Positions 1-37,104 of a stretch of 37,104 nt of DNA are shown piece after piece. Numbering within the stretch: the stretch's first letter is position 1; the number at the start of each line of letters is the position of its first letter. Position numbers and translations under genes: made by a program. The notes beneath the pieces were generated by a model. That model was not told the DNA's origin, did not search any database, and worked only from the letters and a program-made list of their open reading frames with translations. Source of the stretch: Escherichia coli (GTDB lineage: Bacteria > Pseudomonadota > Gammaproteobacteria > Enterobacterales > Enterobacteriaceae). The DNA is taken from the NCBI RefSeq assembly GCF_003334315.1, contig NZ_QOWR01000047.1; one strand, 5' to 3'.

Positions 1-108
1 AGGCAGCACCTGGCACGGCTGGGACGGAAGTCGCTGTCGTTCTCAAAATCGGTGGAGCTGCATGACAAAGTCATCGGGCATTATCTGAACATAAAACACT
101 ATCAGTAA
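1..108 (+). CDS. insB: IS1 transposase InsB, C-terminal fragment (5' partial)
   Basis: Frame 1 from position 1 translates [35 protein letters not shown]-stop, which I recognise as the InsB C-terminus; stop codon at 106-108. Confidence 0.75.
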
Positions 109-123
109 GTTGGAGTCATTACC
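1..123 (+). mobile_element. IS1 insertion sequence, terminal ~123 bp including terminal inverted repeat (element continues off the left edge)
   Basis: Positions 1-123 match my recollection of the IS1 right end (...CTGAACATAAAACACTATCA-TAAGTTGGAGTCATTACC) almost base for base; element terminus ...GGAGTCATTACC ends at 123. No search run. Confidence 0.85.
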
Positions 124-198
124 GAAGGTGCGTTATATTAAACGCGCTTGCTATAAGAATATTTTACTCATGAGTGAGAATCTGGTTATTTATTACCC

Positions 199-438
199 TT
201 AACCATTATCGACCACGATATTGCTTTTACGTAACAGTGGGCAATCTGTTATCCCCAAGAAACCACTTTTAGTGTGCAAGTATTGTACCGTGCTGGTGCC
301 TCTGGCAGTCAGATAGGTACATTGCAAACCTAATCCTGCGGCATTCTCTTTGCTTCCAATCAAAACGCCATATCCGCTGAGTAATAATCCTATCCATACC
401 AGTGCTATCAGCATAACTGTGCGAATGATGAATCGCAT
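199..438 (-). CDS. yobH: small inner-membrane protein YobH (79 aa)
   Basis: ORF track 79 aa, hydrophobic N-terminus (MRFIIRTVMLIALVWIGLLLSGYGVLIG); position divergent from mgrB as in K-12. Confidence 0.8.
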   Translation of the reverse strand: MRFIIRTVMLIALVWIGLLLSGYGVLIGSKENAAGLGLQCTYLTARGTSTVQYLHTKSGFLGITDCPLLRKSNIVVDNG

Positions 439-596: not shown

Positions 597-740
597 GTGA
601 AAAAGTTTCGATGGGTCGTTCTGGTTGTCGTGGTGTTGGCTTGCTTGTTGCTTTGGGCGCAGGTATTCAACATGATGTGCGATCAGGATGTACAATTTTT
701 CAGCGGAATTTGTGCCATTAACCAGTTTATCCCGTGGTGA
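597..740 (+). CDS. mgrB: MgrB, 47-aa membrane peptide, PhoQ feedback inhibitor
   Basis: Manual translation from GTG at 597: [47 protein letters not shown]-stop (TGA 738-740). Below the 60-aa cutoff of the ORF track. Confidence 0.9.
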
Positions 741-2301: not shown

Positions 2302-3111
2302 ATGTCTTTTTCCTGTCCACTTTGCCATCAGCCTCTTTCGCGTGAAAAAAACAGCTATATCTGTCCCCAGCGACATCAGTTTGATATGGCGAAAGAAGGG
2401 TATGTCAATCTGCTGCCCGTTCAGCATAAACGGTCTCGTGATCCGGGCGACAGCGCGGAAATGATGCAAGCACGCCGCGCATTCTTAGATGCCGGACATT
2501 ATCAGCCGCTGCGTGATGCAATTGTCGCCCAACTGAGGGAACGGCTTGATGATAAGGCCACGGCGGTGCTGGATATTGGCTGTGGTGAAGGGTATTACAC
2601 ACACGCATTTGCCGATGCGTTGCCCGAAATCACCACGTTTGGTCTGGATGTTTCGAAGGTAGCGATAAAAGCGGCGGCGAAACGCTATCCGCAGGTCACT
2701 TTTTGTGTCGCTTCCAGCCACCGTTTGCCGTTTTCCGATACCAGTATGGACGCCATAATACGTATTTACGCGCCGTGTAAAGCAGAAGAATTAGCACGAG
2801 TAGTGAAGCCCGGCGGCTGGGTCATTACTGCCACGCCGGGACCGCGACATTTGATGGAGCTGAAGGGGCTGATTTACAATGAAGTACATCTTCATGCACC
2901 TTATGCCGAACAACTGGAAGGTTTTACATTACAGCAGAGTGCGGAGTTGTGTTATCCGATGCGTCTTCGCGGTGATGAAGCCGTCGCATTATTGCAGATG
3001 ACGCCGTTTGCCTGGCGTGCGAAGCCAGAAGTCTGGCAAACACTGGCAGCAAAAGAAGTGTTCGACTGCCAGACGGACTTTAATATTCACCTCTGGCAGC
3101 GTTCTTATTAA
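2302..3111 (+). CDS. rlmA: 23S rRNA (guanine745-N1)-methyltransferase RlmA
   Basis: 269 aa; N-terminal Cys4 zinc ribbon (CPLCHQPL...CPQRHQFD) and SAM-binding motif [10 protein letters not shown] visible in the translation. Confidence 0.9.
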
Positions 3112-3689: not shown

Positions 3690-3900
3690 GGGGTATCCAT
3701 AAAACACATCATCGCCCCCAGCAAACATGCATACATGAACAACAAGCCGCGATGGTTTTCGCGTTCATGCAGGCATAGCGATTGATGTGCATATGGTCTC
3801 GCCTGACTGAAAGCATTCAGTCCGTACGTGCCACGTTTTGCAACGAGTATGTTGACACGTACATTTCCGGAATCTGGAAATCGGCTACTCCCCAAATGAG
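3690..3900 (-). promoter_or_regulatory. probable yybP-ykoY (Mn2+) riboswitch in the mntP 5' leader
   Basis: The minus-strand leader contains GGGGAGUAG (plus 3885-3893) followed by UGUCAACAUACUC ... CUUUCAGUCAGGCGAGACC, motifs I associate with this riboswitch class; E. coli mntP is known to carry one. Boundaries are approximate and the fold was not computed. Confidence 0.55.
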
Positions 3901-4037
3901 GGCGCAACCTTAACATATTTTGAGAATATAAAACAACTGTTGGAATATATTATTTCATTGCTTTATTGATAACGATTTACATTTAGATTTATATATCAAT
4001 GAAACGTTAAAATAAATAACAAATAAGGGAAGAGGTA

Positions 4038-19616: not shown

Positions 19617-21302
19617 TTGAAGAAGGTTTGGCTTAACCGTTATCCCGCGGACGTTCCGACGGAGATCAACCCTGACCGTTATCAATCTCTGGTAGATATG
19701 TTTGAGCAGTCGGTCGCGCGCTACGCCGATCAACCTGCGTTTGTGAATATGGGGGAGGTAATGACCTTCCGCAAGCTGGAAGAACGCAGTCGCGCGTTTG
19801 CCGCTTATTTGCAACAAGGGTTGGGGCTGAAGAAAGGCGATCGCGTTGCGTTGATGATGCCTAATTTATTGCAATATCCGGTGGCGCTGTTTGGCATTTT
19901 GCGTGCCGGGATGATCGTCGTAAACGTTAACCCGTTGTATACCCCGCGTGAGCTTGAGCATCAGCTTAACGATAGCGGCGCATCGGCGATTGTTATCGTG
20001 TCTAACTTTGCTCACACACTGGAAAAAGTGGTTGATAAAACCGCCGTTCAGCACGTAATTCTGACCCGTATGGGCGATCAGCTATCTACGGCAAAAGGCA
20101 CGGTAGTCAATTTCGTTGTTAAATACATCAAGCGTTTGGTGCCGAAATACCATCTGCCAGATGCCATTTCATTTCGTAGCGCACTGCATAACGGCTACCG
20201 GATGCAGTACGTCAAACCCGAACTGGTGCCGGAAGATTTAGCTTTTCTGCAATACACCGGCGGCACCACTGGTGTGGCGAAAGGCGCGATGCTGACTCAC
20301 CGCAATATGCTGGCGAACCTGGAACAGGTTAACGCGACCTATGGTCCGCTGTTGCATCCGGGCAAAGAGCTGGTGGTGACGGCGCTGCCGCTGTATCACA
20401 TTTTTGCCCTGACCATTAACTGCCTGCTGTTTATCGAACTGGGTGGGCAGAACCTGCTTATCACTAACCCGCGCGATATTCCAGGGTTGGTAAAAGAGTT
20501 AGCGAAATATCCGTTTACCGCTATCACGGGCGTTAACACCTTGTTCAATGCGTTGCTGAACAATAAAGAGTTCCAGCAGCTGGATTTCTCCAGTCTGCAT
20601 CTTTCCGCAGGCGGTGGGATGCCAGTGCAGCAAGTGGTGGCAGAGCGTTGGGTGAAACTGACCGGACAGTATCTGCTGGAAGGCTATGGCCTTACCGAGT
20701 GTGCGCCGCTGGTCAGCGTTAACCCATATGATATTGATTATCATAGTGGTAGCATCGGTTTGCCGGTGCCGTCGACGGAAGCCAAACTGGTGGATGATGA
20801 TGATAATGAAGTACCACCAGGTCAACCGGGTGAGCTTTGTGTCAAAGGACCGCAGGTGATGCTGGGTTACTGGCAGCGTCCCGATGCTACCGATGAAATC
20901 ATCAAAAATGGCTGGTTACACACCGGCGACATCGCGGTAATGGATGAAGAAGGATTCCTGCGCATTGTCGATCGTAAAAAAGACATGATTCTGGTTTCCG
21001 GTTTTAACGTCTATCCCAACGAGATTGAAGATGTCGTCATGCAGCATCCTGGCGTACAGGAAGTCGCGGCTGTTGGCGTACCTTCCGGCTCCAGTGGTGA
21101 AGCGGTGAAAATCTTCGTAGTGAAAAAAGATCCATCGCTTACCGAAGAGTCACTGGTGACTTTTTGCCGCCGTCAGCTCACGGGATACAAAGTACCGAAG
21201 CTGGTGGAGTTTCGTGATGAGTTACCGAAATCTAACGTCGGAAAAATTTTGCGACGAGAATTACGTGACGAAGCGCGCGGCAAAGTGGACAATAAAGCCT
21301 GA
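19617..21302 (+). CDS. fadD: long-chain-fatty-acid--CoA ligase FadD
   Basis: Start placed at in-frame TTG 19617 ([14 protein letters not shown]...) giving 561 aa; AMP-binding motif [12 protein letters not shown]. Confidence 0.93.
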
Positions 21303-21320
21303 GCGTTAAGTCAGTCGTCA

Positions 21321-21347
21321 GACGCCGGTTAATCCGGCGTTTTTTTT
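21321..21347 (+). terminator. intrinsic terminator downstream of fadD
   Basis: ACGCCGG-TTAAT-CCGGCGT hairpin followed by seven T. Confidence 0.6.
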
Positions 21348-24729: not shown

Positions 24730-26175
24730 TCAGTTGTCGCCTTTGAATACGGTTCCCGCAGGGAGCACTGGCGTTTTTTCCAGGGCTTCAACCGGTGTCT
24801 GCGGGAGATAATGTTCAACTTGATGAGCCGGAATGTCGGCGTAATCCTGTTTCAGCCAGCGAATAAACCCGCCGACTTTCACCAGTAAAATGACGAGGAA
24901 GGGAAGGGCTGTGAGCACGACGGTGGTTTTCATCGTTTCCAGCGAAGCACCGGTAAACAAGATGGAAAGCGGGATCAGAGTGATCACCACGCACCAGAAA
25001 AGACGCAGCCCACGGTCAGGATCGTCACCTTCCTGGAGATTACGCGTACTGGTCGCCGCCATGGTGTAGGCCACTGCATCCATATGCGAGGCAAGGAAAA
25101 TAATCATCACGCCCAGGTATGCGGCGAGGAACAATTTACCGGCTGGCAACGACATCAGAACTTGCTGTACAGCTGTTTCGCCGCCCAGTGTTTCCAGCAC
25201 CTGTGGGACGTTGATTACGCCATTGATAAACTGATGAATGGCATAGCTTTCCATTACGCCAAAGAAGAACCAGCAACCGACGGTGCTGCCGAGGATCAGT
25301 CCCCAGATAACTTCTTTAATCTTACGACCGCGGGAAACGCGGGTGACAAACATTGCTACGCCAGGGGTGTATGAGATCCACCACAGCCAGTAGAAAACGG
25401 TCCAGTTGCGGGTAAATGAACCATCGCCAAGCGGATCGGTGAATAAGCTCATTTGCAGGAAGTTTTGCGTGGTCAGGCCGATGGCATTGATGATGCTGTT
25501 GGTAATAAATTCGGTTGGGCCGACAATCAGCACCAGTAATGGCAGCAGGAACGCGCCCCAGCCAACCATTTTGCTCAGACGTTGCAAACCGTTGTTGATA
25601 CCAATCCACGAGCTTAGGCAAAAAATGCCGCCGGAAAGCAGGATCACAAATGCCTGCACGGTGAAGTTATCGGGTAAACCGGTCAGCGCGGAAAGCCCAC
25701 GGGTAAAGGTTGCTGCGGTAACAACAAGGGAAATGGTCAGTGCGCCGACAGTGGCGATCAGGAACATCAAATCGACCAGTTTTCCCCATGGGCCTTGCGG
25801 GCGAACGCCGGTAATAGCAGCAATAATGCCGGAAAGGCTCAGACCTTTGTTTTTCCGCACATGAAAGTGATAAGCCATGATTAATGAGGCCAGCGTATAA
25901 GTTGCCCAGGCGCTGATGCCCCAGTGGAAGAAAGAGTAGGGAACGCTAAATTCGAGTGCCTGTTGTGAACGCGGTGCGATATTTAATCCAGGCGTTTGAT
26001 AATAATAGGCCCATTCAGCAACCCCCCAATAAAGCGTAGAAGAACCTAAACCGGCACAAATAAACATAAACAGCCAGGAGAGCGTGCTGTATTCCGGTTT
26101 TCCTTCGCCAAGACGAATATTGCCGTATTTACTGGTGGCTAAATAAATCACCAGTCCCATTGCCAGCAAAACCAA
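24730..26175 (-). CDS. yeaV: BCCT-family transporter YeaV
   Basis: 481 aa; the segment [22 protein letters not shown] aligns with the CaiT/BetT region I recall; the first codon is TTG (plus 26173-26175) with a stop 16 codons upstream. Confidence 0.85.
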
Positions 26176-35831: not shown

Positions 35832-37027
35832 TCATGAACGGCTGTTTTTGTTCTGCTTATTGACATATAAACGCTCATCGGAAGCTTTATACGCATCATG
35901 TAACGTATCGTTTTCTTTCATCGCGTAAATACCGGAAGAGAAGCCGATCTCTTTCTGCGGCGCGATATGTTGCAGACGTTTTTCGATACGTTCAGGCAGT
36001 TGTGCTGCAATTTGCGGCGTCGAATCGACAAGAATGATGCAGAATTCATCGCCACCGAGTCGGATGGCATAATCACTTTTACGAATCGACTGTTTAATCG
36101 CCTGAGCTAATAACGTAATCGCTAAATCCCCCTCCTGATGACCGAGGGTGTCATTTATTTGCTTTAACTTGTCCATGTCAATAGCAATAAACATCACCGA
36201 AGAACCGGATTGCACCAGTTTCTGCAACCGCTGCTCCAGTTCAGGGGTTAAAATTTTGCGATTATACAGTCCAGTCATCGCATCACTAATATTTTCTCGC
36301 GACACATTTTGGTATAAACGGAAGTGCATCCGCACCATATTCAGCAAAATTAACGCCGTCAAAATCCAGAACAGAACGCTTTTCCACGAAGACGTGATAA
36401 AGTAAAGAATATCAATGGATAACGAGACACGAATGCCGCCCGGTAAGTCATGGACGTAACTGACATACTGGAACAGATTATCTTCGCTCTGGTTGATGAT
36501 AATGTCGCGCCCCGAATCGGTATCGGTTAGCGTGACATTGAGAAAACGCCAGAGGAGAGGGCGGTCATGAGTATAAAAGATATTCCGCAGATTGTTTTTG
36601 TTAATATCCAGCAGCACAATCCCTTTTAGCTGCCCTGCGACATATACCGGCGTCAGCAAACTCATCACGTTCTGTTTAGTACGCTGATCCTGGTAAATGC
36701 TCGACAATACGGTACGCCCGGTAAATACCTTTTCAATATCTTTGCGATCGATGCCAATACTTCCTGACTGCAGGAAGGACCAGTTATTCATCGCAAAGTA
36801 TTCAACATTAACCGGCTCATAAAAATAGACATAGCGGTCATTGAGATCGAGATAATAGTGAAATTTCTCTTCGGCCATCCCAAGACCTGAACCGTAATCA
36901 TCCTGGTGGCGGTTGCCTTCCACTGCCTGATCAAAAGCGGGTAATAGTGCTGCAGCTTCCACAATTGTGTCGCAGTCAGTGGATGCGGTTTGTAGTGTGC
37001 CGCGTAAGCCCGGGTATTTATGGGCAG
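35832..37027 (-). pseudogene. dgcJ: diguanylate cyclase DgcJ (YeaJ), 5'-truncated by an IS insertion
   Basis: GGDEF motif (RLGGDEFCIILV) and one TM segment. The ORF cannot extend upstream: stops occur in all three minus frames within 37039-37067, and the first 12 codons of the 410-aa track ORF are IS-derived. About 398 native codons remain versus about 496 aa recalled for K-12; a periplasmic-type sensor region with no upstream TM or signal peptide. Confidence 0.7.
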
Positions 37028-37104
37028 TGGATTGGCCCCTATATTTCCATACACTTTTTATCACTTAACCCATTACTGGTTCGCCGCCGCAGATATTCCC
37101 GTGG
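37028..37104 (-). mobile_element. IS3-family (IS2-like) insertion sequence, terminal 77 bp (element continues off the right edge)
   Basis: Minus strand reads ...PREYLRRRTSNGLSDKKCMEI-stop then GGTTAAGTGATAAAAAGTGTATGGAAATATAGGGGCCAATCCA, close to the IS2 OrfB C-terminus and right inverted repeat as I recall them (roughly 85% similar by eye, not identical). Terminus at plus 37028. Confidence 0.75.

Follow-up and report, generated by a model that had tools for sequence, protein, structure and literature searches.

Insertions of IS elements and deletions at the mgrB locus cause colistin resistance in Klebsiella pneumoniae (PMC10492301), and surveys of such resistance in Klebsiella were all that a literature search on yobH, kdgR and IS1 returned. 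In IS-free Escherichia coli genomes, as seen in O104:H4 2009EL-2071 (L002) and HS30-1 (L004), the neighbourhood is arranged as kdgR (plus strand), a spacer, yobH (minus strand), mgrB (plus strand) and yebO. O104:H4 and HS30-1 have a kdgR-yobH spacer of 142 bp, and K-12 has one of 143 bp, so the distance of about 80 bp given for K-12 in the initial annotation of the DNA studied here was an underestimate. In L002 the wild-type spacer extends from 2934 to 3075, kdgR ending at 2933. Here we analyse a stretch of E. coli DNA of 37,104 nucleotides (the window), which carries a strain-specific IS1 insertion polymorphism in this non-coding spacer. The finding is routine and belongs to ordinary biology.

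IS1 insertions described in the same neighbourhood

Complete E. coli genomes were searched with the right end of IS1, or with its reversed left end, joined to flanking sequence, which recovered all those that have IS1 adjoining this flank. The following comparators were found:

MDK6L1 (NZ_CP081324.1): IS1 at a site 1 nt from that of the window, same orientation as in the window, 9-bp duplication AAGGTGGCG
Isolate 12 (CM194533): IS1 19 bp nearer yobH, same orientation as in the window, duplication CGCGCTTGC
E8: IS1 at +41 from the kdgR stop, opposite orientation, duplication TTTATTTA
55989 (NC_011748.1): IS1 98 nt inside kdgR, opposite orientation, duplication CGTTTCTCT
88COLEC: IS1 between yobH and mgrB (L015, 1937-2704), same orientation as in the window, duplication AACGCATGC

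All of the inspected copies (five of five) are 768 bp long, are bordered by a duplication of 8-9 bp and have kdgR on their far side. Isolate 12 (NZ_CM194533.1; L003, 2076-3295) carries two IS elements in a single 142-bp spacer, namely an IS30 inside the kdgR terminator hairpin and, 60 bp further on, the IS1 listed above. The complete IS1 of 88COLEC stands directly upstream of mgrB, is absent from the window, and could correspond, in E. coli, to the mgrB promoter disruptions of Klebsiella; judging by its name, the strain may come from work on colistin. Three further complete genomes, 2015C-3121, EC5 and 98190, gave matches that suggest an IS1 in the yobH-mgrB interval as well.

The IS1 terminus at the left end of the window

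The window opens with the following features:

1-123, plus strand: right-hand 123 bp of an IS1 of the IS1A type, 100% identity, cut on its left side by the start of the window
1-108, plus strand: 3' end of insB, comprising the last 35 codons and the TAA stop; the translation in frame +1 is the InsB C-terminus
101-123, minus strand: right terminal inverted repeat of IS1 (IRR), GGTAATGACTCCAACTTACTGAT, an exact match of 23 bp

The element at the left end is the right terminus of an ordinary IS1. The initial annotation had recognized positions 1-123 as such from the InsB C-terminus and the terminal inverted repeat, and alignment bears this out, with 123 of 123 positions identical to copies of the IS1A family found on many E. 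coli chromosomes and plasmids. A search of the whole window with the terminal-repeat pattern of IS1 gave a single match, at 101-123 on the minus strand and without mismatch, where none was expected from 100 shuffles. Two features that characterize the IS1 family are present in the window: an IRR of about 23 bp that closes the element, and an insB (DDE_Tnp_IS1) frame that ends just inside it. A complete element of about 768 bp would also have a left inverted repeat, insA and the -1 frameshift site, all of them to the left of the 123 bp that the window contains. In public contigs, the identical 35-amino acid InsB product carries the domain PF03400 DDE_Tnp_IS1. Compared with the IS1 copies of the comparators, positions 1-123 are identical at 122 of 123 positions in four (L001, L015, L017 and L018) and at 117 of 123 in isolate 12 (L003). 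Only the site of insertion of the element is specific to the strain.

On either side the window ends a short way into an IS terminus, of IS1 on the left and of an IS3-family element on the right, so the simplest reading of the window is a draft contig broken at repeats. Short-read assembly would have broken at the multicopy repeat, which would explain why the window starts inside IS1, and the right end would have arisen likewise. Contigs of this kind abound in public collections: in the draft contigs L010, L012, L013 and L014, bases 1-125 are the IS1 right end, such starts are very common, and the index of the collection lists the 35-amino acid InsB fragment for 11,099 blocks, a systematic signature of assembly. 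The insertion is a strain marker that may serve for typing or for closing the assembly, and it matters little otherwise.

The insertion point

To the right of the element, the sequence continues with these features:

124-198: distal 75 bp of the kdgR-yobH spacer, wild-type, identical to L002 3001-3075 and to HS30-1
199-438, minus strand: yobH, intact, 79 amino acids, from the list of open reading frames; L001, L002 and L004 have YobH (WP_001211011.1) at an equal offset
597-740, plus strand: mgrB, intact, 47 amino acids, from the same list; its upstream region is wild-type

Positions 124-198 of the window correspond to positions 68-142 of the wild-type spacer, and since these are its distal 75 bp, the end of IS1 falls 67 nt downstream of the position of the kdgR stop codon in IS-free genomes. 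The right end of the element abuts spacer nucleotide 68, 75 nt before the yobH stop codon. Identity to many IS-free genomes is 100% over 124-600. The initial annotation had placed the IS1 terminus on the kdgR side of yobH and 75 bp from the yobH stop; both statements agree with the flank, which is the kdgR-yobH spacer of IS-free genomes, and with the gap of 75 bp (124-198) that precedes yobH at 199-438.

The annotation had further offered two readings, an IS1 inserted in or beside the 3' end of kdgR, or a loss of kdgR by IS-mediated deletion. Of the two positions named in the first reading, only the second is tenable: IS1 lies beside the gene, 67 nt past its stop, and not in it, since the flank is spacer. 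A disruption of the kdgR::IS1 type is thereby eliminated, because the end of the element abuts spacer positions 68-142 and not kdgR coding sequence. The residues EGALY followed by a stop, which had been noticed in the plus frame at 124-141 and tentatively taken for the residual 3' end of the target gene, are indeed present. They are, however, a chance translation of plain intergenic sequence, because KdgR ends in GYHDYPF followed by its stop in four of four references translated, and because 124-198 is unaltered spacer. This interval matches the 142-bp spacer allele (L002, HS30-1) exactly and contains no gene remnant, which rejects EGALY as a C-terminus of KdgR or a relic of its gene.

The junction between IS1 and the spacer appears to be specific to this strain. 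None of 5,426 complete E. coli genomes has it, its exact 28-nt form (GGAGTCATTACCGAAGGTGCGTTATATT) had no match in GTDB representative genomes or in metagenome contigs, and the 30-amino acid open reading frame that spans it (110-202) had no record in a protein look-up. As the IS1 piece occupies the outermost bases of the window, a position liable to mis-joins, an assembly artefact might be suspected, in which the 123 bp were wrongly attached to the contig end and no IS1 is truly adjacent to yobH. We regard such an artefact as highly improbable, since IS1 and spacer meet precisely where the inverted repeat ends (...CATTACC/GAAGG, the slash marking the join), as transposition predicts and unlike a random chimera. 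Genuine IS1 insertions also lie 1-27 bp from this junction in three complete genomes.

Simple insertion or rearrangement

The best reading of the junction, and a likely one, is a simple intergenic insertion, by transposition of a complete IS1 into the spacer. The element would be a full 768-bp IS1 of the IS1A type, inserted between the convergent genes kdgR and yobH, with insA-insB' parallel to kdgR and pointing towards yobH. Transposition would have duplicated the target, and one copy of the duplication is predicted in the window:

124-132: GAAGGTGCG, putative right copy of a target-site duplication of 9 bp; the flank begins with these 9 bases, which equal L002 3001-3009, and duplications in the comparators are 8-9 bp long

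The DNA to the left of the element can be predicted accordingly. The left junction would read ...AAAGTTGAAGGTGCG/GGTGATGCTGCC..., with GAAGGTGCG duplicated and an intact kdgR beyond; it may also be written ...AAAGTTGAAGGTGCG/GGTGATGC..., where kdgR and its terminator would both be intact. The sequence to the left of IS1 would be ...AAAGTTGAAGGTGC(G), and the contig end on the kdgR side would be expected to show ...CATGAGAAAAATAAAGTTGAAGGTGCG and then GGTGATGCTGCCAACTTACTGAT.

Deletions of neighbouring DNA and recombination between IS1 copies are known for this element. After an adjacent deletion, or after an IS1-IS1 recombination leading to deletion or inversion, the DNA on the left would no longer be the kdgR side, and kdgR, possibly together with yebQ, htpX and more, would have been lost or moved. 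The right junction would look exactly alike after such events, and the window begins inside IS1, hence without the left flank. The IS elements of the strain also look active, dgcJ containing a second IS junction that is strain-specific, and a median of about 10 IS1 places per E. coli genome offers substrates for recombination. The loss of kdgR is nevertheless the less likely branch, because the IS1 copies of all five comparators are simple insertions, each of them complete, with a target duplication and with kdgR on its far side. Moreover, all comparators examined have kdgR, yebQ and htpX next to the spacer, 5,405 of the 5,426 genomes have no interruption in it, and no rearrangement is seen to the right of the junction. 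Taken together, these observations make a deletion or rearrangement unlikely. If kdgR had been removed or displaced by IS1, the KdgR regulon (kdgK, kdgT, eda), and with it the catabolism of KDG and hexuronates, would be derepressed; nothing points in this direction.

Alternatively, the IS1 end could belong to a longer insertion bounded by IS1, for instance a composite transposon or plasmid DNA integrated at this place. IS1A copies with exactly these 123 bp are common on plasmids (13,289 plasmid places), and the second IS of the window, similar to ISEc36/27, is likewise mostly plasmid-borne. All comparator insertions at this locus are, by contrast, single 768-bp elements, and an insert of this kind has a small probability, well below that of a deletion.

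Spacer hairpins and transcription ends

Under a simple insertion, kdgR would be intact on one side of the element, as yobH and mgrB are on the other. For either strand, folding of the wild-type spacer RNA gives two hairpins (z -4.3 and -4.9). The first, an 11-bp stem followed by UAUUU, comes directly after kdgR and is probably the kdgR terminator. The second is a longer imperfect nested palindrome, with the outer arms CATGAGAAAAATA and TATTTTACTCATG and an inner stem of 9 bp. A terminator scanner found no match in the spacer; the hairpin loop, at 13 nt, exceeds the limit of the scanner, and the hairpins are those given by folding. No Rfam family matched within 1-600.

The end of IS1 lies about 25 nt beyond the kdgR-proximal hairpin, at the 5' foot of the inner stem of the second one. 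The insertion would thus split the second hairpin and part yobH from the U-rich tract and the kdgR-proximal hairpin, and for this reason transcripts of yobH would probably extend into the IS1 terminus before terminating. In the 3' region of yobH in the window, the wild-type fold is gone (z -1.6). The functional consequence of the insertion is likely to be little or none.

The window and MDK6L1 independently have their IS1 at the 5' arm or foot of the inner stem, and isolate 12 has its copy at the 3' arm. The small hairpin was considered as a recurrent target, or hot spot, of IS1. Three spacer insertions among some 60,000 chromosomal IS1 places (58,561-63,883, depending on the query) are about what chance would give for 142 bp of a 5-Mb genome and are too few for a target preference; the idea is unsupported, and weaker than the reading in which kdgR is lost.

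The mgrB gene

In view of the Klebsiella lesions, inactivation of mgrB by an IS element, of the type that leads to colistin resistance, was considered and rejected: mgrB is intact at 597-740, its upstream region is wild-type, and IS1 lies beyond yobH. The gene that is clinically relevant when disrupted by IS elements in Klebsiella is thus unaffected here, and no gene is visibly altered at this end of the window.

The remainder of the window

The genes downstream of mgrB are intact as well. From 124 to 25000 the window is about 100% identical to HS30-1 and to many other E. coli genomes, and from 124 to 37028 it is collinear with HS30-1, with 11 mismatches. The sole structural difference is an IS1 of HS30-1 itself, in yeaV. 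This gene, which encodes a BCCT transporter, is intact in the window (24730-26175, minus strand) and split by an IS1A in HS30-1 (L004, 28607-30865), a further strain-specific IS1 polymorphism of the region.

A second IS terminus closes the window:

37028-37104: terminus of an IS3-family element, ISEc36/ISEc27-like, in dgcJ; collinearity with HS30-1 ends at 37028, and the last 77 nt match elements of the ISEc36/ISEc27 family with 100% identity

Elements annotated as ISEc36/ISEc27 occur in only 78 of the 5,426 complete E. coli genomes, mostly on plasmids, and the junction between dgcJ and the IS3-family element was not found among these complete genomes. The dgcJ gene occupies 35832-37027 on the minus strand, and its diguanylate cyclase is probably inactivated, since the element is inserted after about codon 98. 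The chimeric open reading frame of 410 amino acids at the right end of the window (DgcJ') had no record in the protein look-up. A DgcJ' version of 348 amino acids with an internal start is common for unrelated reasons, dgcJ being split in other lineages.

Three known RNA features were also seen in the window. The manganese (yybP-ykoY) riboswitch upstream of mntP (3805-3901, minus strand) scores 41.8 bits against an Rfam gathering score of 45 and is missed at the default setting. A cspA-type thermoregulator at 1751-2211, over yobF-cspC, and sroD at 21261-21346 are detected normally.

Comparison with known insertions

With respect to the element, the window has its closest relative in the IS1 of E. 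coli (IS1A/IS1R type, IS1 family): the visible 123 bp, the IRR and the InsB C-terminus are all alike, and the strain-specific site of insertion alone differs. With respect to the site, the closest known case is MDK6L1, which has a full 768-bp IS1 in the kdgR-yobH spacer and in which kdgR and yobH are both intact. MDK6L1 differs from the window in having the K-12-type spacer allele, with an extra G and 3 further SNPs in 75 bp, in the start of its flank (AAGGTGGCG versus GAAGGTGCG in the window), and in one base of the element (CAA versus CAG in the last codon). Since the start of the flank, the spacer allele and one base of IS1 differ, the insertion in MDK6L1 is an independent event. In 55989, unlike in the window, kdgR itself is split by IS1 and its C-terminus is altered, which is the case that the initial annotation had imagined. 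The mgrB lesions of Klebsiella pneumoniae affect the same neighbourhood, kdgR-yobH-mgrB-yebO, and involve the same class of mobile elements (PMC10492301), whereas mgrB of the window is intact.
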